Sequence record: KP869111
Strand: one strand, 5' to 3'
DNA from: Escherichia coli O157 typing phage 13
DNA: 64,000 nucleotides
Below, piece by piece: positions 13,134-45,687 of the stretch. How positions within the stretch are numbered: position 1 is the first letter of the stretch; every line of letters begins with the position of its first letter. The position numbers and the translations under genes are program-made. A model generated the notes under the pieces. It saw only the letters and a program-made list of their open reading frames with translations, searched no databases and was not told the DNA's origin.

Positions 13134-13361
13134 TTAACAGCAAACAACTTCTTCAGTATCGTAAGCATTAATTGTTCCTCGAACAAAACGAACACCACCG
13201 TCATCCCAGCGGATTTCAGCATTAAATTTGACGTCTTCACCATCCATCATGAATGAGTGTACGACTACATCATCGTAATATCCAAGACCGTATTTCAACG
13301 AAACTTCTTGAGCAATCAAAGCACCTAATGTGTTATTAGGTTTAATCCAACGATTTAACAT
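13134..13361 (-). CDS. hypothetical protein (soc.1 position)
   Basis: Start at internal ATG (MLNRWIK...) preceded by GAGGAG SD and a GTTTAC promoter; the track's N-terminal extension overlaps the promoter. Confidence 0.5.
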   Translation of the reverse strand: MLNRWIKPNNTLGALIAQEVSLKYGLGYYDDVVVHSFMMDGEDVKFNAEIRWDDGGVRFVRGTINAYDTEEVVCC

Positions 13362-13427
13362 ATTGTTCTCCTCTTGAGTAAGTAAGAATATCTTAACACA
13401 GTTTTTAGTGGTTGTAAACTGTAGAAA

Positions 13428-13456
13428 CAAAAAAAAAGGAATCCCGAAGGATTCCT
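13428..13456 (-). terminator. rho-independent terminator after soc (GGAATCC-UUCG-GGAUUCC + U9)
   Basis: perfect 7-bp stem, UUCG tetraloop, 9-T run on minus strand. Confidence 0.7.
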
Positions 13457-13464
13457 TAAATTAT

Positions 13465-13701
13465 TTAACCACTTACTGGTGTAGGGGTAAACATTGCAGC
13501 GTTCTTAGTTTTCCAAGTTGCTGCATCAGAAACGACATCAGAATAAGCTGCCTTTTCTGACGGAAAGATTTGGTAATGAGAATCAGCAATCCGATGTTCG
13601 TTTGAATAAATCTCAAACGGAACAGAAACTTCCATACCTTTAACTTCTTTGCCTTCACCAGCAGGATGCGTAAAGGTTTTTATGTTTACATAACCACCCA
13701 T
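13465..13701 (-). CDS. soc: small outer capsid protein Soc
   Basis: 78 aa; GYVNIKTF...YQIFPSEKAAYS matches T4 Soc; AAGGAG SD. Confidence 0.85.
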   Translation of the reverse strand: MGGYVNIKTFTHPAGEGKEVKGMEVSVPFEIYSNEHRIADSHYQIFPSEKAAYSDVVSDAATWKTKNAAMFTPTPVSG

Positions 13702-13703
13702 AA

Positions 13704-14042
13704 TTAACTCCTTTGTTGTTTAATTACAGGTGTATTTATAATGAATTCCTGTGGAACAGTAAAATATCCGAATTTAGCTAATACAACAACATCACCATTA
13801 ATGATTACTGGAGAATAATCATCTGAGTTATTAAATTTCCAATGAAGCCTGTCATCATATCCATCAGAACCAAATGCTCGAGTAGCCGGTCTCCCGGCTT
13901 TTTGCCATGCATAAAAATCAAGTTTCATTTGCAACCCAATCAACCATATGTAGATGGTCTGATAATTGACTAACATGCTGAAGCTGATTAGACAGGAGCT
14001 TACAAATAAGCTCACTGTTATCATTTTTAAATAGTTGGTCAA
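13704..14042 (-). CDS. hypothetical protein with hydrophobic N-terminus
   Basis: 112-aa ORF between 56 and soc (position of segF in T4, but no GIY-YIG features); start uncertain. Confidence 0.4.
   Translation of the reverse strand: MTNYLKMITVSLFVSSCLISFSMLVNYQTIYIWLIGLQMKLDFYAWQKAGRPATRAFGSDGYDDRLHWKFNNSDDYSPVIINGDVVVLAKFGYFTVPQEFIINTPVIKQQRS
13733..13740 (-). promoter_or_regulatory. T4-type late promoter TATAAATA upstream of soc
   Basis: exact TATAAATA on minus strand about 30 nt upstream of soc ATG. Confidence 0.5.
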
Positions 14043-14090
14043 TACGTTTCTTATGAGCTTTCTTAAGCTGACGTTTATTTAAACGAGCCA

Positions 14091-14612
14091 TTAATAACCT
14101 CGGTCTTGACGAGCAAAGTTTTCAGCATTCTTCAGATAATACAGTTTAAAGATTTCTTCAGCAGAAAGACCCAGACCTTGGAACATGTTCAGAACGAAGT
14201 GCAGAATATCAATCATTTCGAATTTAATTTCGAGCTGGTCTTCGGGAGACAGTTCATCAATACGACGATTACGATATTCAGCATGTTGTGCTTTCCATGG
14301 CTTCCACACAGAGCTGGCAGCTTTTTCACCGTTGGACATACCACCAAGTGAAGTCAGCAGTTCACGGAATTCATCATCAATATAATCTTTCTGATTACGC
14401 AGCCAATCAACAACATCGCCAGCAGTAGCCAATTCATCAGGATGTTTGTTATGTTCAGGCTTGTCATTTGCCAGACGAACCTGTAAAGATTTCTGCATAT
14501 CAAGCATTACCTGCAGTGGGTCTTTATCTTCGTGAATCAGAGCATTAAAATAAGCTTCTTCTGCTTTATCAACACCAGAAATAAGTTGTGAACATTCGTT
14601 AAAGTGTGCCAT
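14091..14612 (-). CDS. 56: dCTP pyrophosphatase (dCTPase/dUTPase)
   Basis: MAHFNECSQLISGVDKAE... matches T4 gp56; start at ATG with AAAGGA SD (track ORF extends 5 codons upstream). Confidence 0.85.
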   Translation of the reverse strand: MAHFNECSQLISGVDKAEEAYFNALIHEDKDPLQVMLDMQKSLQVRLANDKPEHNKHPDELATAGDVVDWLRNQKDYIDDEFRELLTSLGGMSNGEKAASSVWKPWKAQHAEYRNRRIDELSPEDQLEIKFEMIDILHFVLNMFQGLGLSAEEIFKLYYLKNAENFARQDRGY

Positions 14613-22479: not shown

Positions 22480-23028
22480 TTAACGAGCCCATTTGATGAT
22501 TTCTGTAATCAAATCATTACGTTCGCTTGCATTAAATCCTATAACTTTGTTAGCACCATCATGATTAAGTAATTGATACGTTTGGATTTTGTTATGAATT
22601 GCAAACTCTTCAAAATGTGAAATGACTGTATTAAAACCGAATGAAGACAAAGTGATAAGGTCGTCTTCAAAACTTTCAGTCATTTCGTTACGTGTTAAAA
22701 TAATTGTGAACACATCATGGTTTTGGCAAAGACGAACATAATCCTGTTCATAAACGTCAAGAACCGAGTCCGCATCTTGTCGAATACGTCCATAAACCCA
22801 GTTACTAATATATCCACGGTCTAACAGATAAATCTTAGTAGGGTCTAAATAATTCAACATCGTTTCGAAACAGCCAACTTCATTTCGAGACTTAACATCG
22901 AAACGTCCATCAACTGTTCGTTTAGGGAAATCAATCTTTACATATCTTTCACTAATTTCCATTATGTCATTAATGAAAGTTGTTTTACCAGCATTATCCG
23001 GGCCATCTACTAAAATAATTTTAGCCAT
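22480..23028 (-). CDS. P-loop kinase (NMP-kinase / thymidylate-kinase-like fold), substrate unknown
   Basis: 182 aa; Walker A LVDGPDNAGKTTF; GAGGAA SD; no T4 counterpart recognised at this position. Confidence 0.5.
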   Translation of the reverse strand: MAKIILVDGPDNAGKTTFINDIMEISERYVKIDFPKRTVDGRFDVKSRNEVGCFETMLNYLDPTKIYLLDRGYISNWVYGRIRQDADSVLDVYEQDYVRLCQNHDVFTIILTRNEMTESFEDDLITLSSFGFNTVISHFEEFAIHNKIQTYQLLNHDGANKVIGFNASERNDLITEIIKWAR

Positions 23029-23029
23029 T

Positions 23030-23929
23030 TTATTCCTCGATTACGACATCTTCATATTTAGGTATATTATACGGTGAAGAAATTAAAGCATTAAAGTAGA
23101 TGAACTCACCAAGACCTGGATGAAATACTTCTTCAGGATTTTCGAAATATTGAATCTTCGGACGTCCTTTAAGAATTTGATAGTACTCAGTTTTAGTTGG
23201 TTTAAAAATTCGAATCAACGCTTCTTCAGGATACTTATTTCTGTCGAAGCTATTATTTGGATCGGTTATATAAAGCGGTTGACCTAATTGAATTGCGCAT
23301 TCAACAACTTGTTCAAAACGATAGCATGGGTCACTAATTCGAAATGGATGAAAAATACCATCTAGATGAATAGGAGCCAAATCACCTACAAGACGCTGCA
23401 TGATGGAAGGACGTATAACTTTCTGCGTTACGATAATCTTATTACCATCTGCACCTGCGTTAACCAGCACTTCTTTTTGACGTTCATTCAACACAGTAGT
23501 TTGAAGTGAACGATTAACCGACAACATATCAGTTTTTAAGAATTCGTCAATATAAAAACGTGGTTTATTAGGGTCTGCAGTGATATTGAAATTGAATTCC
23601 ACATCAAAAGCGCCGTCATATCCAGTGATATCTGTGATTAAAAAATCACAATCATAATAAGCAATTAATGAATCAACAACAAATTCATTTTCAGACCAGA
23701 AATATTTACGAGTGTTATACGCGTTATCTTTATACCATAATGGAACAAACTTAAATTCTGGAAAAAGACGTTCGCATTCTTTAATATCAGATGCATTACG
23801 TGGATATGTAATCACATCACCCGGATTAGCACGGTGCAAATGAAGTTGGAAGTTGCCATCCTTAAGGATAGCATACTGTCCAGTTTCATAAGACCGCATA
23901 CTCAAGATTGGTACGCGGAAAATAGCCAT
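23030..23929 (-). CDS. hypothetical protein, possible second glycosyltransferase (beta-gt position)
   Basis: 299 aa; C-terminal EQVVECAIQLGQPLYI loosely resembles GT-B EA..G.P(V/L) motif; TAATG overlap with upstream gene. Confidence 0.45.
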   Translation of the reverse strand: MAIFRVPILSMRSYETGQYAILKDGNFQLHLHRANPGDVITYPRNASDIKECERLFPEFKFVPLWYKDNAYNTRKYFWSENEFVVDSLIAYYDCDFLITDITGYDGAFDVEFNFNITADPNKPRFYIDEFLKTDMLSVNRSLQTTVLNERQKEVLVNAGADGNKIIVTQKVIRPSIMQRLVGDLAPIHLDGIFHPFRISDPCYRFEQVVECAIQLGQPLYITDPNNSFDRNKYPEEALIRIFKPTKTEYYQILKGRPKIQYFENPEEVFHPGLGEFIYFNALISSPYNIPKYEDVVIEE

Positions 23930-24645
23930 TAGTCAAGGAATCCTTTAACATAATCAAAATCACGTTCAAACACATGGGCACTTACCATGGTATGAGTATA
24001 ATCACCAACTTCTACCCCACATTCGTTAGCGATATAATGAAGTAATTTTCCTTGGAGATAAAAATCCAACTGCATAACAACAGCACAGTTCTGAGAACGC
24101 ATATGACAGTGGGTATAAAGCTTACCATCACGAATATAATAAGTCACTGAGTCAGTACATGGATATTCAAGCGTTTCGTCCGAATCAAGCAAAGCCTGAT
24201 CAGAACTTTCTAGAATTTGGAACACAACTCTTCGAGAGTTAGGCTTCTCTTTAAGTTCTTTTAGAAGAGCTGGTAATTGGGCCGCAATGCGAGGACCATA
24301 GAAAGTGTTGAAGTTCGCCGGCAAAACATCTGATTTTGGTTTAGAAATAAATTTAGCGACATTAGGATATGCCTTAAACGCTTCTTCTGCGTTGGTACCA
24401 CCAGAAATCATAAACTTCCAGAAGTCTTCGGCATATTCATAAGAGATGCGGTTAATACGTGGGTCGGTCATTTTGAATGATGATGGAGTGTCAACAACTA
24501 CTGTCATAGACCCAATTTCATTACAACGTCCAATACGAGAATCAGTTACGAATTCCGGGTTTTCTAAAATTTCACGATTGACTGCTTTAAATGCGGTTTG
24601 AAAATCTGCGGCTTTGATATATTTCATTGTGTTATGTTTTCCCAT
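23929..24645 (-). CDS. pyrimidine hydroxymethylase of thymidylate synthase superfamily (dCMP hydroxymethylase, gene 42-like but divergent)
   Basis: 238 aa; NSRRVVFQI, YPCTDSVTYYIRDGKL (catalytic Cys), MRSQNC, SAHVFERDF align to T4 gp42 / TS motifs; GAGGT SD. Confidence 0.6.
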   Translation of the reverse strand: MGKHNTMKYIKAADFQTAFKAVNREILENPEFVTDSRIGRCNEIGSMTVVVDTPSSFKMTDPRINRISYEYAEDFWKFMISGGTNAEEAFKAYPNVAKFISKPKSDVLPANFNTFYGPRIAAQLPALLKELKEKPNSRRVVFQILESSDQALLDSDETLEYPCTDSVTYYIRDGKLYTHCHMRSQNCAVVMQLDFYLQGKLLHYIANECGVEVGDYTHTMVSAHVFERDFDYVKGFLD

Positions 24646-24687: not shown

Positions 24688-24927
24688 TTATTTGAATTTC
24701 TTGACAATGTTGATATAACGTAAAGCTTCAGCATCGATACTTCCAAGAACACTATGAAGAAATGCATCAGCGTAGTATTCCAATTGAACAGGTTCTTTAA
24801 TCACTTTAGCCGCTTTAGTTTCAAACAGGCCCATCAGGGCCTTTTTAAGAATTTGTTCGTTGCTGTTAATTTTCATAGTCAAAATCTCTTCATTAAGTTG
24901 GTGGTTAAAAGTTTTTCTAGAAATCAT
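24688..24927 (-). CDS. small acidic protein (weak carrier-protein-like LGSID motif)
   Basis: 79-aa ORF; ATGA overlap with upstream gene. Confidence 0.4.
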   Translation of the reverse strand: MISRKTFNHQLNEEILTMKINSNEQILKKALMGLFETKAAKVIKEPVQLEYYADAFLHSVLGSIDAEALRYINIVKKFK

Positions 24928-26084
24928 TCCGGGTACCTCAAAGCGTCATCAGAGTTAGTTATATCAATAATAGATATAGAGTTTTCTGCTAACCCGTTTT
25001 TAGATAATTGACGTTTATAATATCTTTCACAATATGTACACGTCGTCCCGCAGATTTCATTAGCACAATCGAAATCTGGATGTCTGAACCACCTTTTTTC
25101 TAAAAAGCCATCTAACAAAGAGGTTTCAATATTTACTGTATGTGAAAACTCAGTTTCGTTTTCAAGAGTGAAAATAGTCTCTAAAGGCTTCCACAGTTCT
25201 AACAAATTACCTTCAAACTTTTCAGAAGCGTATGCTTCAAGAACTTTCAAAATGTAGTCTGTGCTACCTGTACGTCCTGAAACTTTGAATTGAGTGATAC
25301 CAATATCATTATAAAGTTTCAAATCTTGAGGACGAACAAAACGAGTTCTCAACCAGTTAAATGGGTCTGTATCACGAGCTTTAATACAGTGCTGCATAGG
25401 ATATCCGTTTAAGGATTTAGCATCATCAGCTGTAACATCAGTACTATGGAAAATATAGCAAGAGTCACGATAGCTACAATGTGTTGTATACCCTTTACCA
25501 GCATTAGAACAGAACTCATTTACAAGAACTTCAAATATTATATTGTTCTTATTGCAAAACTCTGCTGCACGCTTCAGGAAAGAAACTGAACGGTTCTTAT
25601 GAATTCCACAGCAGACCTTTTTGATATTATACTGGTCATGCAAGTATTTGATTTGAGTTACAGCATCGACATGTAGAATTGTTGAAACTTCAATCTCAAT
25701 GTCTTTATTGACTTCACGAACAATTTCCATAACAACAGGGTTAGCGATAGTAATACGCCATACGCCTATTGACCAAAGATACTGAACATAATCCTGAATA
25801 GCTTTCTTCTTCCACCCAACTAGTTCTCTTTTTGAACCAGGATTTATCGTGTTGAGTGTATAGTTAAAGCAAATACCTAATTCGTTACAACGTTTAACGT
25901 AATCTTCTAACATCTTTTTGTCAACGTCAGGAAGCCTAAAATCAGGTCTGGCTGCTACAAAAGCCATTTCTCTTGTAGAGCCGTATACTTCGTTTATCAA
26001 GCTATTAGGATAAGTTTTATTGAGCTCTACGATTTTATCAAGAAGAGCTAAATCAAAATTCGTTCCAATTTTAAAAGTATTCAT
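24924..26084 (-). CDS. Cys-rich protein of uncertain family (possible Fe-S enzyme; peptidase-U32-like or radical-SAM-like features)
   Basis: Track M1 is GTG; ATG at MNTFKIG; Cys clusters EFCSNAGKGYTTHCSYRDSC and C-terminal CANEICGTTCTYC (CxxxCxYC spacing). Confidence 0.45.
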   Translation of the reverse strand: MNTFKIGTNFDLALLDKIVELNKTYPNSLINEVYGSTREMAFVAARPDFRLPDVDKKMLEDYVKRCNELGICFNYTLNTINPGSKRELVGWKKKAIQDYVQYLWSIGVWRITIANPVVMEIVREVNKDIEIEVSTILHVDAVTQIKYLHDQYNIKKVCCGIHKNRSVSFLKRAAEFCNKNNIIFEVLVNEFCSNAGKGYTTHCSYRDSCYIFHSTDVTADDAKSLNGYPMQHCIKARDTDPFNWLRTRFVRPQDLKLYNDIGITQFKVSGRTGSTDYILKVLEAYASEKFEGNLLELWKPLETIFTLENETEFSHTVNIETSLLDGFLEKRWFRHPDFDCANEICGTTCTYCERYYKRQLSKNGLAENSISIIDITNSDDALRYPE

Positions 26085-26140
26085 TTTTTTGCATCTCACG
26101 TTAATTGATGCGATGGTTTTTGCAGGTCTTACTTAAATTA

Positions 26141-26527
26141 TTATAGATTCGGTTTATATGATTTAAATGTTTCGAATTCGCCTTTATTCATAAGAGCTTT
26201 GAATTCGTCAGGACGCATAGCTTTGTCGTCGATAATCCAATCATATACTGGTTTATGTGTTAGCAAATTATGGTACTTCAAACCAATGTTTTCCAAGTTC
26301 TGAATCAGACTTGGGAGAATGTCAATTGCTATACGACCAGGACCTACTGACTTCATACCGCGAGCAGTGTAAAGCGTTATGGTATGCCCTGCATCATACA
26401 GGGCATTAATAGCAGTCACCATTTCGACGTCTGGTTTGAAGTTCACGTAATCACGATTGTTATTCCACTCTGTTATACAATCATCGACATCAAAACAAAG
26501 ATTAAGCATGTTTTCTACACGGTGCAT
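26141..26527 (-). CDS. HAD-superfamily-like small phosphatase
   Basis: FDVDDC (motif I-like DxD), conserved K, IIDD (motif IV-like); start at ATG overlapping upstream stop. Confidence 0.5.
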   Translation of the reverse strand: MHRVENMLNLCFDVDDCITEWNNNRDYVNFKPDVEMVTAINALYDAGHTITLYTARGMKSVGPGRIAIDILPSLIQNLENIGLKYHNLLTHKPVYDWIIDDKAMRPDEFKALMNKGEFETFKSYKPNL

Positions 26528-28212
26528 TAGATTCGTTCCCATTGATGAGTGATATCGCCACCGATTGGACGATAAGAAACACCAGTTTCTTTATCAGTTA
26601 GTACCCATTTACCAGGATTTTTTGTAATCAGAGTAGCCGTTACAGGTTCTGCTACGTCATAACTAATAGAGCCGTCCTGAAGTACACGGCCCATGTTACG
26701 TAATTGCTTAGTCAGAAGTTCCATACCTTTATAATATGCGGCTACCGCTTTAAGTGGATTATTCTTGAAATAACCACCTAATGCAATCCAGATAATTGCT
26801 ACAGCCAAATGATGATACTCGTTAAACGAACTCATCTTTCCATATTTGTAAACTAATGGATTGATGTTAATAGTCACATTACAAGTTGTTTCGTCAATAG
26901 TAAACTGTCCCCAGGTCGGATTAGCGTTGAATTCATCATAACCTGAAACAGCATAAAGCACTTTAGCTTCATCATACAATTTTGGCCCGTAAATCTTGGT
27001 TTCGCCAAAATATCCACGAGGGTCGATAAACTTGACTTCGCCGTTATCAGTAATCATAGTATTACTGAAGTTCGGGTCACCGTGAATAACAGAGTACTGT
27101 CCCTGAGAACGGGTATGATAACGAATAAGATGTTCTAAAGCTTGCTTCAGCATTGGCTTCAGACGTCCAATCTTAGTGTAGTTCACGTGTGTGATTTTAC
27201 CAAATGAATCAATCAATGGCTGAATGCTTTCACAACGATCAATAACTTTCGTATAGAACTCTTTAGTGAAATCACGGCGAACAGTTTCAGGACTTACAAA
27301 ATAAGTGTCTGTGCTGAATTTCAGTGCATCTAAAATTGCATCAACAATTTGTGGACGAGCAAGACTTGATTTGGATTTAATATATTCAAATGCTGGCTTA
27401 CCTTTAATACGTTCCATTTCAAAATTATTTTCATTTACCGAAACTAACTGAGGAACTGAATCTGATTTCACTTTCAAATACCATGAAATCTCATCTTTTT
27501 GAAGAGCTCGACCTTGTTCGGTTAACGCGAATTTAGTTACAGTTTCTTCGCCAATTTCAACTGCATTAAAACTACGATTAAGTTCACGAACTTCATGAGC
27601 TTTTTCAAGTTTAGGCATATCACCTAAATCAATTAGATTCATAAGCTCTGATTTATTGAATGCACTGCCGTAAAGGAATTCTACGAAATCACGTCCTTTG
27701 CAGTATTCATGAATTTCCTCATCAGTAGAACCCATGTAGAATTCCCAGTCTTTGAACTGATAAATTCCTACAACATTACCGCCTGTTGAACCTACGTTAG
27801 TGATATTTTCACCATCGAAATTATATCGACATTCATCACCCTTAACATAGATTGCGTTAACATTCCAAGACCATGAACCAAAATCAGGAATAATATCACA
27901 CCAGTTAACAATTACGTTATGGCCATCTAAATCTTTGTATAATTTAGCAAGAGCATAAGCAGAACCATACGCTTCATCAACTGTACGAATAGTCACATTG
28001 AACCCTTCTTGCTCGCAATAAGCTCGAACAGTTTCAGCAAATTTTGAATGAACTACTACAATAATTTCATCTGCGCCAAGGTCAGAATAAATTGTATACA
28101 AATTGCTCAGAATAGTGTCTTGTTTATAGTTAACAAGAACTTTTGGAATATGATGCGTTATTGGATACAAACGAGTTGCCAGTCCAGCACCAAGAATAAC
28201 AGCTTTTTTCAT
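26527..28212 (-). CDS. bifunctional sugar-1-phosphate nucleotidyltransferase (N-term) / small-molecule kinase of APH-choline-kinase fold (C-term)
   Basis: 561 aa; N-terminal ILGAGLATRLYPIT (RmlA/GlmU-like); C-terminal HGDPNFSNTMI...IDP (Brenner kinase motif); GAGGA SD. Confidence 0.65.
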   Translation of the reverse strand: MKKAVILGAGLATRLYPITHHIPKVLVNYKQDTILSNLYTIYSDLGADEIIVVVHSKFAETVRAYCEQEGFNVTIRTVDEAYGSAYALAKLYKDLDGHNVIVNWCDIIPDFGSWSWNVNAIYVKGDECRYNFDGENITNVGSTGGNVVGIYQFKDWEFYMGSTDEEIHEYCKGRDFVEFLYGSAFNKSELMNLIDLGDMPKLEKAHEVRELNRSFNAVEIGEETVTKFALTEQGRALQKDEISWYLKVKSDSVPQLVSVNENNFEMERIKGKPAFEYIKSKSSLARPQIVDAILDALKFSTDTYFVSPETVRRDFTKEFYTKVIDRCESIQPLIDSFGKITHVNYTKIGRLKPMLKQALEHLIRYHTRSQGQYSVIHGDPNFSNTMITDNGEVKFIDPRGYFGETKIYGPKLYDEAKVLYAVSGYDEFNANPTWGQFTIDETTCNVTININPLVYKYGKMSSFNEYHHLAVAIIWIALGGYFKNNPLKAVAAYYKGMELLTKQLRNMGRVLQDGSISYDVAEPVTATLITKNPGKWVLTDKETGVSYRPIGGDITHQWERI

Positions 28213-28253: not shown

Positions 28254-28397
28254 CTAGTTAAAGCATTCATACTTTGCTTGTAGTCCAATCATAATCCATC
28301 CAATTACAAGTGTTGGAATCATTACTGGAGCCGTTAAGCTCCAGTAGATAGTCATGACAAGCATCAATAGTAAAAGTCCTATTGTTATTGCTTTCAT
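28254..28397 (-). CDS. small hydrophobic membrane protein (47 aa)
   Basis: Own translation MKAITIGLLLLMLVMTIYW...; ATG overlaps SIS-gene stop (ATGA); not in ORF track. Confidence 0.4.
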   Translation of the reverse strand: MKAITIGLLLLMLVMTIYWSLTAPVMIPTLVIGWIMIGLQAKYECFN

Positions 28398-29029
28398 TGT
28401 TCGCCTCGTAACATGGCACCTAGTGCACCGCCTGGATGGAACTTAAGAAAGTCATTAGAGGTAAATCCACGTTCAGACGAAAGGTTGATAGCAAACGTAT
28501 CGATAAGCGCTAACAACAATGTAGTGGACATAGTCGGAGCCAGAGAATTCTCATCAACCTCTACCGCGATGCCTGTACAGAAAGAGTAATCAAAAAGGGC
28601 TTCATTTTCTTGCGGAATGTCTGGGTTACAATGCAACAGAATCTGTTTGACATTTGGACGAATCATTTTAAGATGCTTAGCCACGCCTATCATTTCTTCA
28701 GTCTTACCAGAACGACTAATATGAATCAACACATCATTAGGCGCAATGAATCCTGCATCACCGTGAGAATAATGCCCAGTGTTCAAGTACATACTCGGGA
28801 TACCGAGTGAAGCAAATGTCTCAGAAGCTTTAGTTGCAATATTAGCATTCTTACCAACACCTGTAATAATTACTCGGCTTTCATAATTACTAAGTCCAGG
28901 GCGTCGAAGAGTTTCTAGAATAGCATTATAACGAGCAGGGTTTTGACTAATTACTTTGGCCATAGCGGCCAAAGAAGAAGCTTGTTTTATGATTGCGTCA
29001 ATAGCGATAGTAATAGGAGTAGTTTTCAT
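28394..29029 (-). CDS. SIS-domain sugar-phosphate isomerase (arabinose-5-phosphate isomerase KpsF/GutQ-like, no CBS domains)
   Basis: 211 aa; ITGVGKNANIATK...HGDAGFIAPNDVLIHISRSGKTEE...APTMSTT...HPGGALG match the API/SIS signature. Confidence 0.7.
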   Translation of the reverse strand: MKTTPITIAIDAIIKQASSLAAMAKVISQNPARYNAILETLRRPGLSNYESRVIITGVGKNANIATKASETFASLGIPSMYLNTGHYSHGDAGFIAPNDVLIHISRSGKTEEMIGVAKHLKMIRPNVKQILLHCNPDIPQENEALFDYSFCTGIAVEVDENSLAPTMSTTLLLALIDTFAINLSSERGFTSNDFLKFHPGGALGAMLRGEQ

Positions 29030-43402: not shown

Positions 43403-43873
43403 TTAATCATGTTTCCACACCCCATTGGTATTCGACCAAAGTCGCTGATTATCTGATCCTCGCCACAGTTTTTTGGTCGGAAGATTTTTCTCATACTTCC
43501 CATCAATAATAACATCAACATATTTAAGCATTTCTAGTTGTTTAATATCTTCAAACTTATATCCTGTCCACAACCAAATGCTTTTATTGGGATAAATATT
43601 TTTTACTGTTTGAACAATGCAATGAACAACATCTCTATTATCAGGATAGAGAGGGTCGCCTCCGGTTATAGTCAATCCTTCTATATAATCATTATTCAAA
43701 CATTCAATTAATTGTTCTAGTGTCTCTCCAGTGAATGGAGCACCATTTCTAGCGTTCCATGTTGATTTATTATAACACCCTTCACATTTATGCAAACAAC
43801 CTGTAACGAAAAGAACGACCCTGCAACCAGGGCCATTCACAAAATCGCAAGGATAAAATCTATCATAATTCAT
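43403..43873 (-). CDS. nrdG: anaerobic ribonucleotide reductase activating protein (radical SAM)
   Basis: 156 aa; CLHKCEGC radical-SAM cluster motif; matches T4 NrdG. Confidence 0.85.
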   Translation of the reverse strand: MNYDRFYPCDFVNGPGCRVVLFVTGCLHKCEGCYNKSTWNARNGAPFTGETLEQLIECLNNDYIEGLTITGGDPLYPDNRDVVHCIVQTVKNIYPNKSIWLWTGYKFEDIKQLEMLKYVDVIIDGKYEKNLPTKKLWRGSDNQRLWSNTNGVWKHD

Positions 43874-45687
43874 TGGTGTTTAACCCTATGCATGATTTCT
43901 TTATTTTTACCGAGATTAAATCCGCGTTCGTTCGGATTTCCCAAATAACCGCATGTTCTTCTTATGGTGTTCATCTTTTTAGGATCAGTTTCTCCGCAAA
44001 CTGAACAAACAAATCCGTTTTCAGTAGGAGTCATTTCATGGGTACTTCCACATGTAAAACATTTATCTACTGGCATATTAACACCAAAATAATCTAAATG
44101 TTGTGCAGCATAATCCCAGACAGCCTCAAGTCCCTTTAAATTGTTTTTCATATCTGGAAGTTCAACATAAGAAATGTGACCACCTGTCGCAATGAAATGA
44201 TATGGCGCTTCACGAGAAATCTTTTCAAACGGAGTAATATTTTCTTCTACTGAAACATGGAAACTATTAGTGTACCAGCCTTTATCTGTAACATCTTTTA
44301 CACTTCCATATTTTTCTGTGTCTAGTTTACAGAAACGATAACAAAGGTTTTCAGCAGGTGTAGAATACAAGCTAAAAGCAAACCCAGTTCTTTCAGTCCA
44401 TTGTTTAAGAAGAGCATTCATTTTAGTTAAAATTTCTTGTCCAATATCACGTCCGACAAGAATATTCAATTCGTGGATACCAATGTATCCTAAAGACACT
44501 GAACTTCTACCGTTTTTAAATAACTCAATTATGTCGTCATCAGGTTTAAGACGAACCCCGAATGCACCTTCTTGGTAAAGAATAGGAGCAACAGTCGCTT
44601 TAACTCCTTTTAAGGAACTAATTCTACACATCAAGGCTTCAAAACACAGATCCATACGTTCATTGAATAATTCAACAAATTTCTGTTCATTGAACTGTGT
44701 TCCAATATAAGAATCTAATGCGATACGAGGAAGATTCAGTGTTACAACACCGAGATTATTACGTCCATCAAGAATTTCATTACCAGTCGAATCTTTCCAT
44801 ACGCTCAAGAAACTACGGCAACCCATTGGAGAAACTGGAACTGAAGAACCAGTAATAGCTTTATTATTCTTAGCTGAAATAATATCAGGATACATTCTTT
44901 TGCTTGCGCACTCTAGAGCAAGCTGCTTAATATCATAGTTCGGATCGTCTTTATAAAGATTAACACCTTCTTCAACGAACATAACAAGCTTAGGGAAAAT
45001 AGGAGTTATTCCATCACGACCAAGACCTTTAATGCGGTTTTTAAGAATTGCCTTCTGAATCATTCGTTCAGTCCAATCGGCCCCCGTACCAAATGTAATT
45101 GTTACAAAAGGTGTTTGTCCGTTTGAACTAAAGAGAGTATTTACTTCATATTCATAAGCTTGGAACGCGTCATAGACATCTTTTTCTGTTTTGGATTGAG
45201 CATAATTCAACGCATCAGCGATTTGCCATTTTTCCGCATCTTCAACATGTTTAGCGTATGTGCGTTTAACATAAGGAGAAAGAACTTTATCGACATTTGC
45301 AAATGTAGTTCCGCCATACTGATGTGAAGCAACTTGTGCAGTAATTTGTGCCATAATTGCAGTAGCAACACCAATCGATTTAGGCGTTTCAATTTGAGCA
45401 TTGCCTAATTTAAATCCGTTCTCAAGCATCCCCTTTAAATCGACTAAACAACAATTAGTAAACGGAAGAGCAGGAGAATAATCAATATCATGCATGTGGA
45501 TAATTCCACTTTCATGCGCATTCATAATAAAAGACGGGACCATATTTTTGGCAATGTGCTTAGACACAATACCAGCCATAAGGTCCCGTTGAGTTGGAAA
45601 AACACGAGAATCTTTATTAGCATTCTCGTTTAAAAGGTCTTTATTAGTTTTATGAATTAATCCTTCAATTTCTTTTTCAATTTTCAT
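43870..45687 (-). CDS. nrdD: anaerobic ribonucleoside-triphosphate reductase (glycyl radical enzyme), uninterrupted
   Basis: 605 aa; C-terminal RRTCGYLG glycyl radical motif and Cys zinc site; no intron. Confidence 0.9.
   Translation of the reverse strand: MKIEKEIEGLIHKTNKDLLNENANKDSRVFPTQRDLMAGIVSKHIAKNMVPSFIMNAHESGIIHMHDIDYSPALPFTNCCLVDLKGMLENGFKLGNAQIETPKSIGVATAIMAQITAQVASHQYGGTTFANVDKVLSPYVKRTYAKHVEDAEKWQIADALNYAQSKTEKDVYDAFQAYEYEVNTLFSSNGQTPFVTITFGTGADWTERMIQKAILKNRIKGLGRDGITPIFPKLVMFVEEGVNLYKDDPNYDIKQLALECASKRMYPDIISAKNNKAITGSSVPVSPMGCRSFLSVWKDSTGNEILDGRNNLGVVTLNLPRIALDSYIGTQFNEQKFVELFNERMDLCFEALMCRISSLKGVKATVAPILYQEGAFGVRLKPDDDIIELFKNGRSSVSLGYIGIHELNILVGRDIGQEILTKMNALLKQWTERTGFAFSLYSTPAENLCYRFCKLDTEKYGSVKDVTDKGWYTNSFHVSVEENITPFEKISREAPYHFIATGGHISYVELPDMKNNLKGLEAVWDYAAQHLDYFGVNMPVDKCFTCGSTHEMTPTENGFVCSVCGETDPKKMNTIRRTCGYLGNPNERGFNLGKNKEIMHRVKHQ

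Follow-up and report, generated by a model that had tools for sequence, protein, structure and literature searches.

The phage considered here, Escherichia coli O157 typing phage 13 (KP869111), is an RB69-like phage and belongs to Mosigvirus; the proteins of its DNA-modification island are 97.5-100% identical to their RB69 counterparts. The stretch that was analysed, called the window below, is 64,000 nucleotides long. By sequence comparison, the two open reading frames (ORFs) under study are homologues of RB69 gp50 (386 residues, U32 family) and gp49 (79 residues), and the RB69 names are used throughout. The relevant features are as follows.

22480..23028, (-) strand: gp45 homologue, thymidylate-kinase-like nucleotide kinase (phrog_761; PMC13326640 Table 1)
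23030..23929, (-) strand: gp46:47 homologue, first DNA arabinosyltransferase (phrog_3891; PMC13326640)
23929..24645, (-) strand: gp48 homologue, ThyA-family flavin/O2-dependent 5-hydroxy-dCMP synthase (Pfam Thymidylat_synt; 99.2% identical to RB69 gp48)
24688..24927, (-) strand: gp49 homologue, 79-residue basic protein modelled as three helices (phrog_8601), translationally coupled to gp50
24924..24927, (-) strand: ATGA overlap of the gp50 stop codon (TGA) and the gp49 start codon (ATG), visible in the sequence itself
24924..26084, (-) strand: gp50 homologue, 386-residue U32-family protein, proposed prephenate-dependent, O2-independent pyrimidine C5 hydroxylase
25029..25067, (-) strand: codons of C340-x4-C345-x3-C349-x2-C352 of gp50, putative second Fe-S (or metal) site
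25386..25532, (-) strand: codons of E185 and of C192, C203, C209 and C233 (Cx10Cx5Cx23C) of gp50, U32-motif Glu and putative [4Fe-4S] ligands
26141..26542, (-) strand: gp51 homologue, AfhF-like phosphatase of the HAD type, directly upstream of gp50 (phrog_1238; PMC13326640)
26527..28212, (-) strand: gp52:53 homologue, bifunctional arabinose-phosphate kinase/nucleotidyltransferase, AfhE-like (Pfam NTP_transferase and a kinase-like C-terminus; PMC13326640)
28394..29029, (-) strand: gp55 homologue, arabinose-5-phosphate isomerase with a SIS domain (Pfam SIS, phrog_5670; 100% identical to RB69 gp55)
43403-43873, (-) strand: NrdG, activase of the anaerobic ribonucleotide reductase (Pfam Fer4_12 and Radical_SAM)
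43870-45687, (-) strand: NrdD, anaerobic ribonucleotide reductase (Pfam NRDD, E 1e-170, with Gly_radical)
43403..45687, (-) strand: NrdG and NrdD together

The gp46:47 and gp52:53 homologues are intact in this phage, each being a single ORF (299 and 561 residues, respectively). The presence of NrdD and NrdG suggests a phage equipped for anoxic replication. A scan of the island for promoters and terminators gave counts that were not above the shuffled expectation.

The longest ORF of gp50 (24924..26099, (-) strand) opens with a GTG codon at 26099 and would encode 391 residues, and an ATG codon at 26084 gives the 386-residue protein beginning MNTFKIG. The ATG is likely the real start because the residues in front of it diverge (VRCKK in the studied phage versus MQK in RB69), the homologues begin with MNTFK or MxxxK, and the RefSeq annotation has the 386-residue form. 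Pfam PF01136 (Peptidase U32) matches residues 99-291 of the 391-residue form with 42.2 bits against a gathering cutoff of 22.4 (E 7.5e-11), and the same domain is precomputed on nearly all of the homologues. The fold of gp50 is the TIM-barrel-like fold of U32 proteins. The only U32 structure that it matches is Mk0906 (PDB 5D88), which is 14% identical, has no assigned function and is missing the Cys-rich extension at the C-terminus of gp50. A search of the PDB by sequence gave no match, and a search of NCBIfam gave only a sub-threshold match to UbiU (17.7 bits versus 440).

The cysteines of gp50 form two groups. The mid-protein motif, EFCSNAGKGYTTHCSYRDSC, covers residues 190-209 and contains C192, C203 and C209. 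The C-terminal motif, CANEICGTTCTYC, covers residues 340-352 and has the spacing Cx4Cx3Cx2C, within which CxxxCxxC is contained. C192, C203 and C233 are invariant in 100 homologues with identities down to 27%, and C209, C340, C345, C349 and C352 are at least 90% conserved in the same set; judged by this conservation, the motifs are not a product of chance. A preliminary description of the locus had noticed a Cys-rich 386-residue ORF with two cysteine motifs and had compared it, without calling the comparison secure, to the Fe-S hydroxylases of the U32 family, a view that it would have given up had the cysteines varied among homologues. Both the ORF and its motifs are real, the cysteines are kept, and the family likeness is now secure.

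The cysteines of the U32 motif of gp50 align with C169/C176/C192 of RlhA, C170/C177/C193 of TrhP and C169/C176/C193 of UbiU, and E185 aligns with E162 of TrhP. The aligned Cys and Glu residues are essential in RlhA and TrhP (PMC5727448, PMC6599085), and the aligned cysteines of UbiU are cluster ligands (PMC6747719). The match to the canonical motif is partial: three of the four gp50 cysteines align with canonical positions, the spacing is Cx10Cx5Cx23C as against CX6CX15CX3/4C, and the canonical fourth cysteine (Cx3/4C) is missing, presumably replaced by a family-specific one. MAFFT and hhalign disagree on whether the first canonical cysteine is C192 or C203. This conflict and the departure from the canonical spacing weigh against a hydroxylase function of gp50.

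When the gp50 family was compared with the E. coli paralogs by hhalign, RlhA was the closest (97.2%, E 4e-11, 200 columns), followed by TrhP (94.3%), UbiU (82.5%) and UbiV (1.5%). RlhA (YdcP), the synthase of 5-hydroxycytidine C2501 in E. coli 23S rRNA, has, like gp50, a U32 barrel, and the U32 motifs of the two proteins have the essential Glu and the Cys pair in common. RlhA hydroxylates cytosine at C5, requires prephenate and Fe-S biogenesis, and uses no O2. Both proteins have a C-terminal group of four cysteines, which in RlhA are C572/C580/C611/C614 (C580 and C611 being essential), but the spacings differ in this group (Cx4Cx3Cx2C in gp50, Cx7C...CxxC in RlhA) as well as in the mid-protein one (Cx10Cx5Cx23C versus Cx6Cx15Cx3C). 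RlhA is a 653-residue protein that carries DUF3656 and binds 50S precursors, whereas gp50 has 386 residues and no DUF3656. The possibility that gp50 is an RlhA orthologue was rejected on the absence of this domain and of any NCBIfam equivalog match, on length and on the C-terminal cysteine spacing. We propose, by analogy, that gp50 works like RlhA without being its orthologue, the substrate being a viral deoxynucleotide (or DNA) instead of rRNA.

The four U32 subfamilies whose role has been defined all serve as hydroxylation factors and carry Fe-S Cys motifs (PMC6747719, PMC10990095), and prephenate is the oxygen donor of U32 systems (PMC10990095). TrhP with TrhO, and UbiU-UbiV with UbiI/H/F, are pairs in which a U32/prephenate enzyme and an O2-using enzyme carry out one reaction, so that the whole range of oxygen levels is covered (PMC6599085, PMC6747719, PMC10990095). 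The adjacent genes of gp48 (flavin, O2) and gp50 (U32) would follow the same logic of pairing, with a presumed redundancy; the substrates of the host pairs, tRNA U34 and ubiquinone precursors, are unlike the one proposed for gp50. Each subunit of the UbiU/V heterodimer holds one cluster, whereas gp50 has two Cys groups in one chain.

The function of gp48 is established by experiment. RB69 gp48 makes 5hodCMP with oxygen derived from 18O2 (PMC13326640). RB69 gp48 and HY126, both flavin-dependent enzymes of the ThyA superfamily, make the product that is proposed for gp50; gp48 is encoded in the same island and supplies the downstream kinase and arabinosyltransferases that gp50 would also supply (PMC13326640). 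Gp48 and gp50 have unrelated folds and cofactors, gp48 having the ThyA fold and FMN and taking its oxygen from O2; the role of gp48 is proven, while that of gp50 is deduced. The preliminary description had taken this neighbour for a hydroxymethylase, an assignment superseded by its 99.2% identity to the RB69 5-hydroxy-dCMP synthase. RB69 introduces the hydroxyl group at the dCMP stage, ahead of replication, and the DNA product, mono- or di-arabinosyl-5-hydroxycytosine, is fully covered by gp48 together with the enzymes of arabinose activation and the glycosyltransferases (PMC13326640).

Prephenate is made by chorismate mutase. In all nine of the other U32-bearing T4-like lineages (genera) examined, a chorismate mutase of Pfam CM_2 follows the U32 gene, either directly or with one small ORF in between, the matches having E values of 8e-8 to 3e-12 and scores above the gathering threshold. 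The adjacency is kept in Shewanella phage Thanatos-2 despite a rearrangement of the island. The phage mutases keep the EcCM residues R11, R28, K39, E52, S84 and Q88; they are of the AroQ (type II) class, would supply prephenate, and occupy the slot and have roughly the size (79-128 residues) of gp49. By tblastn the mutase was present in 54 phage records, all 54 of them T4-like phages of Enterobacterales or Shewanella, which is the host range of the U32-bearing phages. The position of the U32 gene between those of the HAD phosphatase and gp48 is kept across at least 10 genera. Against this stands the studied lineage itself: a hidden Markov model of the nine phage mutases found no chorismate mutase among all ORFs of the 64-kb window, and tblastn found none in Mosigvirus records, both of which count against a prephenate-dependent gp50.

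The linkage extends beyond the T4-like phages. On non-T4 viral contigs and metagenome-assembled genomes (MAGs) with U32 proteins 44-58% identical to gp50, the U32 gene is followed directly by CM_2, by a fused DAHP-synthase::CM or by DAHP synthase alone; an Erysipelotrichales MAG also has CM_2 or DAHP synthase adjoining the gp50 homologue. The neighbours at 39 non-T4 U32 loci include gp46:47-like glycosyltransferases (17/39), AfhE-like enzymes (16/39) and arabinose-5-phosphate isomerase (9/39), and also dCMP deaminase, Tmk, dNK, NT5C or dUTPase. Only one of the 39 has a gp48/ThyA homologue, as a weak match, versus 25 of 25 T4-like loci. The chorismate mutase linkage and the viral clusters without gp48 suggest that a second route, independent of oxygen, leads to the same hydroxylation.

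We therefore favor, with a probability of about 0.6, the reading that gp50 hydroxylates C5 in a prephenate-dependent, O2-independent manner and gives the same 5-hydroxycytosine precursor as gp48. Family membership, fold, cysteine conservation and gene linkages are direct observations, from which we infer the substrate, the dependence on prephenate and the independence of oxygen. The enzyme would be a U32 Fe-S protein that hydroxylates cytosine at C5 in an O2-independent reaction, prephenate being the oxygen donor, and would have precedents in RlhA (ho5C in 23S rRNA), TrhP (ho5U in tRNA) and UbiU/V. Its substrate would most likely be deoxycytidylate, at the nucleotide level, and its product would enter the 5-hydroxy-dCMP pool that is also filled by gp48, in parallel to the host pairs. 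Synthesis of arabinosyl-5-hydroxycytosine DNA could then continue in anoxic hosts, for example in the gut. In related phages the mutase encoded beside the U32 gene would raise the supply of prephenate; the studied Mosigvirus would have lost it and would rely on PheA/TyrA of the host. The label of an 'anaerobic backup' may be too narrow for gp50 because RlhA and TrhP work in air too.

Several points from the literature count against the hydroxylase reading. The literature searched contained no biochemical or genetic test of gp50, and the U32 literature searched contained no in vitro reconstitution of U32 hydroxylase chemistry. Table 1 of PMC13326640 labels gp50 a 'sugar or heterocycle reductase', a label given without data. 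In the papers covered, which do not include those of He et al. (2026) and of Mahler et al. (2025), no oxygen-free hydroxylase role was assigned to gp50, and there was no link between U32 or prephenate and phage 5-hydroxycytosine. Of the older RB69 literature, Thomas et al. 2018 leaves gp49 and gp50 unmentioned, and a 2021 survey of Tevenvirinae lists gp49 as 'n/a' and gp50 as having 'homologs among peptidases'.

The alternative that survives best, although we consider it unlikely, is that gp50 carries out the same chemistry on the polymer, i.e. that unmodified cytosines of the phage DNA, and not dCMP, are hydroxylated after replication. The characterized nucleic-acid U32 enzymes, RlhA and TrhP, do act on polymers (PMC5727448, PMC6599085), RlhA is the closest paralog of gp50, and several viral U32 genes overlap a DNA glycosyltransferase-like gene. 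However, gp50 has no nucleic-acid-binding domain: both DUF3656 of RlhA and the C-terminal extension of TrhP are absent from its 386 residues (653 and 453 in RlhA and TrhP, respectively). Its neighbours act on nucleotides (gp48, kinases, dCMP deaminase, NT5C, dNK, dUTPase), and the timing of hydroxylation in RB69, described above, is against a modification of the finished DNA.

It is improbable that gp50 is some other redox enzyme that modifies the sugar or the base in an additional step. This idea was put forward in the preliminary description, which also saw a radical-SAM-like C-terminal spacing (CxxxCxxC), and is implied by the reductase label in PMC13326640. Gp50 has no Pfam Radical_SAM match and is not a member of that superfamily; its motif is C-terminal and has a fourth cysteine, and its fold is that of U32, so the radical SAM assignment was abandoned. 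The conserved fourth cysteine, C340, suggests a fully ligated cluster. The RB69 product carries no additional modification that would need such an enzyme and leaves no unexplained chemical step, which makes a step beyond glycosylation unlikely. Nor would such an enzyme explain why U32 genes are repeatedly linked to those of chorismate mutase and DAHP synthase.

We give still less credence to the proposal that gp50 is an RNA hydroxylase similar to TrhP or RlhA, which would tune translation by modifying tRNA or rRNA of the host or the phage, its position in the island being incidental. RNAs are the only known nucleic-acid substrates of U32 enzymes, and the hhalign similarity to RlhA and TrhP is consistent with such a role. 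The conserved order of HAD phosphatase, U32 and gp48 genes is not what an incidental position predicts, and the distant viral U32 genes travel with genes of DNA glycosylation and deoxynucleotide metabolism, not of translation. DUF3656, the TrhP extension and an NCBIfam equivalog match are all missing from gp50, and a tRNA scan found no tRNA genes within the window. That gp50 is a genuine collagenase-type U32 peptidase, processing for example a phage or host protein, is very improbable: database names such as 'peptidase' or 'collagenase-like protease' suggest it and the family was originally named for PrtC, but the U32 subfamilies of defined role are all hydroxylation factors (PMC6747719, PMC10990095), and the Cys groups, the nucleotide-metabolism context and the chorismate mutase linkage have no rationale in a protease.

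The distribution of the prephenate-dependent hydroxylase proposed here can be compared with the lifestyle of the hosts. The 221 phage records with a U32 gene all have facultative anaerobes as hosts. A gp48-type gene occurs in 57 Acinetobacter and 20 Rhizobium phage records and in one inspected Pseudomonas phage, none of which has a U32 match, and the Acinetobacter and Pseudomonas islands inspected contain neither U32 nor chorismate mutase. Genomic homologues of gp50 are found mostly in lineages of anaerobes (Oscillospiraceae, Erysipelotrichales, Tannerella, Phocaeicola). E. coli Dhakaviruses such as Bp7 have gp48 and lack both U32 and chorismate mutase; the module is thus not required for infecting a facultative anaerobe, which counts against the proposed function. 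The correlation with host lifestyle may also rest on few independent gains and losses.

A broader proposal, which we advance tentatively and at slightly less than even odds, is that the virus-specific U32 clade is an oxygen-independent, prephenate-fed hydroxylase that makes 5-hydroxypyrimidine 'handles' for DNA hypermodification. It would be the sole hydroxylase in phages of obligate anaerobes and would be kept beside the O2-dependent ThyA-type enzyme in T4-like phages of facultative anaerobes. In the former, U32 would travel with glycosyltransferases, sugar-activation genes, methyltransferases and genes of the shikimate pathway (chorismate mutase, DAHP synthase). The RB69-type arabinosyl-5-hydroxycytosine pathway was worked out only in 2025-2026 and its hydroxylation needs molecular oxygen, although RB69-type phages have the anoxic gut as their main habitat and encode an anaerobic ribonucleotide reductase. 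An oxygen-free gp50 would close this gap, and a gene conserved in over 200 sequenced phages would acquire a function. The enzyme would extend the recently recognized prephenate/U32 chemistry from RNA and quinones to DNA precursors, as the first use of prephenate as an oxygen donor for a DNA precursor, and would explain the chorismate mutase and DAHP synthase carried by phages, in what would be the first case of phages rewiring aromatic amino-acid metabolism for DNA modification. Many uncultured phages of anaerobes would be likely carriers of hypermodifications based on hydroxypyrimidines, and undiscovered 5-hydroxy- or 5-alkoxy-pyrimidine DNA would be predicted in gut phages. Such modifications are relevant to the evasion of restriction and CRISPR, to the behavior of therapeutic phages in the gut and to the enzymatic synthesis of modified DNA.

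The small gene downstream of gp50 is joined to it by the ATGA overlap, as the preliminary description had stated, and a GAGG sequence lies 9 nucleotides upstream of its ATG; gp49 would be produced by translational coupling with gp50. The protein had been described as acidic and is in fact basic (9 D/E versus 12 K/R, pI 9.26). It has no match in Pfam or NCBIfam. A profile search of 5.8 billion proteins placed the family in 40 clusters, all from T4-like phages, and gave neither distant homologues nor fusions beyond these phages. The conserved core consists of Y51, D54, F56, H58, S59, G62, E67 and R70. In its AF2 model (pLDDT 84.8) gp49 folds into three helices (4-18, 23-39 and 46-78) and resembles no chain in the PDB; the family is lineage-restricted. 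Gp49 may serve gp50 as an accessory protein, and any interaction between the two is one that we infer. The 79-residue chorismate mutase of Entb_45, which occupies the same slot, prompted the idea that gp49 is a diverged mutase. This was rejected, since gp49 gives no CM_2 match even at E <= 10, aligns none of the EcCM residues R11, R28, K39, E52, S84 and Q88, has no BLASTP similarity to the Entb_45 mutase and, again, has no fold match in the PDB. Gp49 instead has its homologues in Pectobacterium phage PM2 and Yersinia phage TG1, where they are additional small ORFs that coexist with the mutase.

The two open reading frames are named, like their neighbours, after the RB69 homologues (gp50 and gp49) and lie in a minus-strand modification island:

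Genes of the modification island, in minus-strand order
28394-29029 (-), arabinose-5-phosphate isomerase
26527-28212 (-), bifunctional nucleotidyltransferase/kinase
26141-26542 (-), HAD phosphatase
24924-26084 (-), U32 protein (gp50)
24688-24927 (-), 79-aa protein (gp49)
23929-24645 (-), ThyA homologue (gp48)
23030-23929 (-), glycosyltransferase (gp46:47)
22480-23028 (-), nucleotide kinase (gp45)
last in order, after the nucleotide kinase, uvsX

Over the 6.7 kb around gp50 and gp49, the sequence matches Escherichia coli O157 typing phages 3 and 6 (Mosigvirus) at 100% identity and RB69 at 98.4%; in RB69, gp50 is annotated 'peptidase' and gp49 is hypothetical. The island proteins are 97.5-100% identical to those of RB69 (gp48 99.2%, gp49 97.5%, gp50 99.2%). 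ORFs 46/47 and 52/53, annotated as split in RB69, are single intact minus-strand ORFs of 299 aa (23030-23929) and 561 aa (26527-28212) in the window, in agreement with the attribution of the splits to sequencing errors (PMC13326640).

RB69 DNA carries 5-hydroxycytosine bearing one or two arabinoses rather than hydroxymethylcytosine (Lee et al., NAR 2026, PMC13326640). The same paper showed that 5-hydroxy-dCMP is produced by the ThyA homologue gp48, which binds flavin and, according to 18O2 labelling, takes the oxygen atom of its product from O2; in-vitro confirmation with phage HY126 is credited there to He et al. 2026. The authors attribute UDP-arabinofuranose synthesis to the sugar genes and arabinosyl transfer to gp46:47 and gp3. 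In this paper gp50 appears in Table 1 only, as a 'sugar or heterocycle reductase' with structural match 5D88; gp49 goes unmentioned, and nowhere does the text use the words chorismate, prephenate, Fe-S or hydroxylase. In a 2021 survey the entries are 'n/a' for gp49 and 'homologs among peptidases' for gp50. No statement of a U32/prephenate role in phage DNA hypermodification was found in the searchable literature, a scope outside which two key subscription papers fall.

The longest gp50 frame starts with GTG at 26099 (391 aa), and an internal ATG at 26084 gives 386 aa. The residues before this ATG differ even between the window phage and RB69, homologues start with MNTFK/MxxxK and the RefSeq annotation is the 386-aa form, so the length of 386 aa in the preliminary description is right. 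Both Cys motifs (residues 190-209 and 340-352) and the ATGA stop/start overlap with gp49, preceded by GAGG 9 nt upstream, are present as it described. The small partner, however, is not acidic: gp49 holds 9 D/E against 12 K/R and has a pI of 9.26. A sigma-70-like TTTAAA-16-TATAAT sequence (10/12 matches; 26140-26167, minus strand) lies just 5' of the gp50 start; such sites are no commoner in the island than in shuffled sequence.

The resemblance of gp50 to U32 Fe-S proteins, at first a hunch, is strengthened by an above-threshold match to Pfam Peptidase_U32 and by the conservation of both Cys groups among 100 homologues. In this set, which extends down to 27% identity, C192, C203 and C233 never vary, and conservation is at least 90% at C209, C340, C345, C349 and C352; an upstream Glu and the NEFC context persist as well. 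Poor conservation of the Cys, which the preliminary description had named as refuting its reading, is thus not seen. The family comprises 1177 representatives at E <= 1e-3 and 109 at E <= 1e-30, and an AlphaFold2 model from the 100-sequence alignment has a pLDDT of 94.5 and a pTM of 0.92. In an alignment with the four E. coli U32 paralogs, the gp50 Cys fall on UbiU C169, C176 and C193, which are cluster ligands (PMC6747719); the equivalent positions are essential in RlhA (E161, C169, C176; PMC5727448) and TrhP (E162, C170, C177; PMC6599085). The gp50 spacing nevertheless departs from the canonical CX6CX15CX3/4C of U32 hydroxylases, and MAFFT and hhalign are at odds over the identity of the 'first' Cys, C192 or C203.

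E. coli U32 paralogs compared with the gp50 family by hhalign
RlhA: probability 97.2%, E 4e-11, 200 columns
TrhP: probability 94.3%, E 1e-7
UbiU: probability 82.5%, E 1e-5
UbiV: probability 1.5%, E 0.033

Alone among the paralogs, RlhA, which is required for 5-hydroxycytidine in 23S rRNA, carries another four-Cys group at its C-terminal end (C572, C580, C611, C614), mirroring gp50 C340-C352; its C580 and C611 are essential (PMC5727448). An RlhA orthologue gp50 is not: it has neither DUF3656 nor an equivalog match, and is 386 aa long against 653 aa. The radical-SAM-like spacing noted earlier does exist, as CxxxCxxC within the C-terminal motif, but this motif sits at the extreme C-terminus with a fourth conserved Cys and gp50 has no Radical_SAM profile match, so a radical-SAM assignment is rejected. 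Gp50 has the U32 fold and two four-Cys groups, both of them conserved.

Prephenate is the product of chorismate mutase. It is genetically required for U32-dependent hydroxylation by RlhA and TrhP (PMC5727448, PMC6599085) and donates the oxygen atom in the UbiU/V pathway (PMC10990095); U32/prephenate hydroxylases are already known as a kind. In Enterobacter phage Entb_45 the gp49 slot is filled by a 79-aa 'chorismate mutase' gene (Pfam CM_2, E 2.4e-10) that overlaps the U32 stop codon. Examination of this and eight more U32-bearing T4-like phages (Pectobacterium PM2, Klebsiella PhiKpNIH-6, Yersinia TG1, Proteus Pm5461, Serratia CHI14, Escherichia EcS1, Providencia PSTRCR_127 and Shewanella Thanatos-2) revealed the U32-mutase linkage in all of these lineages. 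The mutase lies directly 3' of the U32 gene or one small ORF further (CM_2 E 8e-8 to 3e-12, above the gathering score), and the pair is still together in the rearranged island of Thanatos-2. The catalytic residues of E. coli chorismate mutase (EcCM), R11, R28, K39, E52, S84 and Q88, are retained. By tblastn the mutase occurs in 54 phage records, all T4-like and with Enterobacterales or Shewanella hosts, as is the case for the U32-bearing phages; the 54 include no Mosigvirus, Dhakavirus or Acinetobacter phage. Neither an HMM of phage mutases run over the window ORFs nor tblastn found a chorismate mutase in the window phage, and its prephenate would therefore come from host PheA/TyrA.

The T4-like mutases are minimal AroQ proteins lacking an equivalent of EcCM R51, several with N-terminal extensions of 40-50 aa (loci L005-L013; L-numbers denote loci carrying gp50 homologues). 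In a T4-like 168.5-kb IMG/VR genome (L030:5992-7909) a ThyA homologue is directly 3' of U32, with neither a chorismate mutase nor a gp49-like ORF; evidently this slot gains and loses small genes freely.

Homologues 44-58% identical to gp50 occur in IMG/VR contigs, metagenome contigs of up to 466 kb and a few MAGs. About 6-9 kb around the U32 homologue was scanned with island-protein profiles in 39 non-T4 and 25 T4-like loci.

Island-type genes near U32 homologues (non-T4 loci; T4-like loci)
gp46:47-like glycosyltransferase: 17/39; 25/25
AfhE-like kinase/nucleotidyltransferase: 16/39; 25/25
arabinose-5-phosphate isomerase: 9/39; 15/25
chorismate-mutase domain: 9/39; 22/25
gp48/ThyA homologue: 1/39 (weak, E 2e-5); 25/25

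According to Pfam, a fused DAHP-synthase::chorismate-mutase (DAHP_synth_1 + CM_2) adjoins U32 in L042:4405-5427 and L044:4324-5379, DAHP synthase alone is directly 3' of it in L066:10145-10891, CM_2 is directly 3' in L049 and L054, and CM_2 is nearby in the Erysipelotrichales MAG L073. Phages with the first three loci therefore encode enzymes for the entry and the branch point of the shikimate pathway. The jumbo-phage/MAG mutases (L054:7104-7427, L073:11282-11566) have an insertion of roughly 12 aa absent from the T4-like ones, which makes them a different AroQ subtype and suggests separate recruitment. Further neighbours are dCMP deaminase, thymidylate-type kinases, deoxynucleoside kinase, 5'-nucleotidase, dUTPase/DCD, UDG-like proteins and UDP-galactopyranose mutase. 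The gp50-like clade travels with deoxypyrimidine, DNA-glycosylation and prephenate-pathway genes, and outside T4-like phages such clusters occur without the O2-dependent hydroxylase, apart from the one weak gp48/ThyA match in 39.

Several of these loci have features of their own. A Radical_SAM/SPASM gene is one or two genes from U32 in L069:6980-8011, L070:6972-8000, L003:12160-13185 and L002:1-249, and a frequent order in such non-T4 contigs is kinase, radical SAM, GT-like, U32. In L003, 4 kb downstream of the gp50-like gene and after the radical SAM/SPASM gene, there is a second, very divergent U32 paralog of 377 aa (13227-14360, the same gene at L071:13227-14360; phmmer E about 1e-17 to gp50); the two may be a UbiU/UbiV-like pair. 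In the cultured strict anaerobe Phocaeicola faecalis FXJYN30E22 (L078:3044-7137), U32 is preceded by a GP88-like phage gene, a guanylate-kinase::methyltransferase fusion and a 267-aa protein, which could be a hydroxylate-then-O-methylate (mo5-like) base-modification locus. L067:6777-15179 lacks a ThyA homologue and has glycosyltransferase-like genes, a dUTPase/DCD-family gene and UDP-galactopyranose mutase flanking U32, a set reminiscent of the galactofuranosyl-5hoC chemistry that has been reported for Rhizobium phage RL38J1 (PMC13326640).

Across lineages, the gp50 gene is linked to enzymes that make prephenate and to the 5-hydroxycytosine glycosylation toolkit. Based on these associations, we propose, with a probability of about 0.6, that it is a prephenate-using, O2-independent C5 hydroxylase for the 5-hydroxycytosine precursor. 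Gp50 would hold one or more Fe-S clusters and hydroxylate C5 of dCMP with prephenate, and the resulting 5hodCMP would join the kinase, polymerase and arabinosyltransferase route of the gp48 product. The main variant, action on DNA instead of dCMP, is unlikely: gp50 lacks a nucleic-acid-binding domain and is surrounded by nucleotide enzymes, both of which favour the nucleotide level. The preliminary description envisaged an extra step beyond glycosylation, but the published product already accounts for all the chemistry, and a second route to hydroxylation is more economical. If correct, the proposed hydroxylase role would resolve the oxygen paradox in a freshly described pathway and place a viral U32 clade in DNA-base hypermodification, beside phage-borne shikimate-pathway genes.

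The window also encodes an anaerobic ribonucleotide reductase (43403-45687, minus strand), consisting of NrdD (605 aa; Pfam NRDD, E 1e-170, and Gly_radical) and the radical-SAM activase NrdG (156 aa). This anaerobic-only dNTP supply indicates a phage built for replication in anoxic cells. The gp50 homologue occurs in 221 phage records, all at least 80% identical, whose hosts are Enterobacterales or Shewanella, facultative anaerobes. Of the 373 records with gp48-type genes, 57 are from Acinetobacter phages and 20 from Rhizobium phages, and neither of these two groups has a U32 match; both U32 and the mutase are absent from the Acinetobacter and Pseudomonas phage islands inspected. The module is also missing from E. 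coli Dhakaviruses (Bp7), and the correlation of U32 with host lifestyle may reflect few evolutionary events. Eight gp50 matches among 185,579 species genomes include the anaerobe lineages Oscillospiraceae, Erysipelotrichales, Tannerella and Phocaeicola faecalis. Since U32 enzymes work in air too, 'oxygen-independent' is safer wording than 'anaerobic-only'.

Gp49 is not a chorismate mutase, as it has no CM_2 match, no similarity to the Entb_45 mutase and none of the catalytic residues. A profile search of 5.8 billion proteins yielded a family of 40 clusters, confined to Mosigvirus, Mosugukvirus, Tegunavirus and a Kanagawavirus-like contig. Its gene is always directly 3' of the U32 gene, and 5' of the mutase where both occur. 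The translational coupling and strict co-occurrence hint that gp49 might be an accessory to gp50. The conserved core consists of Y51, D54, F56, H58, S59, G62, E67 and R70, and the model (pLDDT 84.8), predicted to form three helices, has no fold match among PDB chains; its first 20 residues are the least confidently modelled. Many database entries (clusters P0291-P0301) are 47-58 aa long instead of 79 aa, owing either to a different choice of start codon (in-frame candidates are M18 and M32) or to truncation of the allele.
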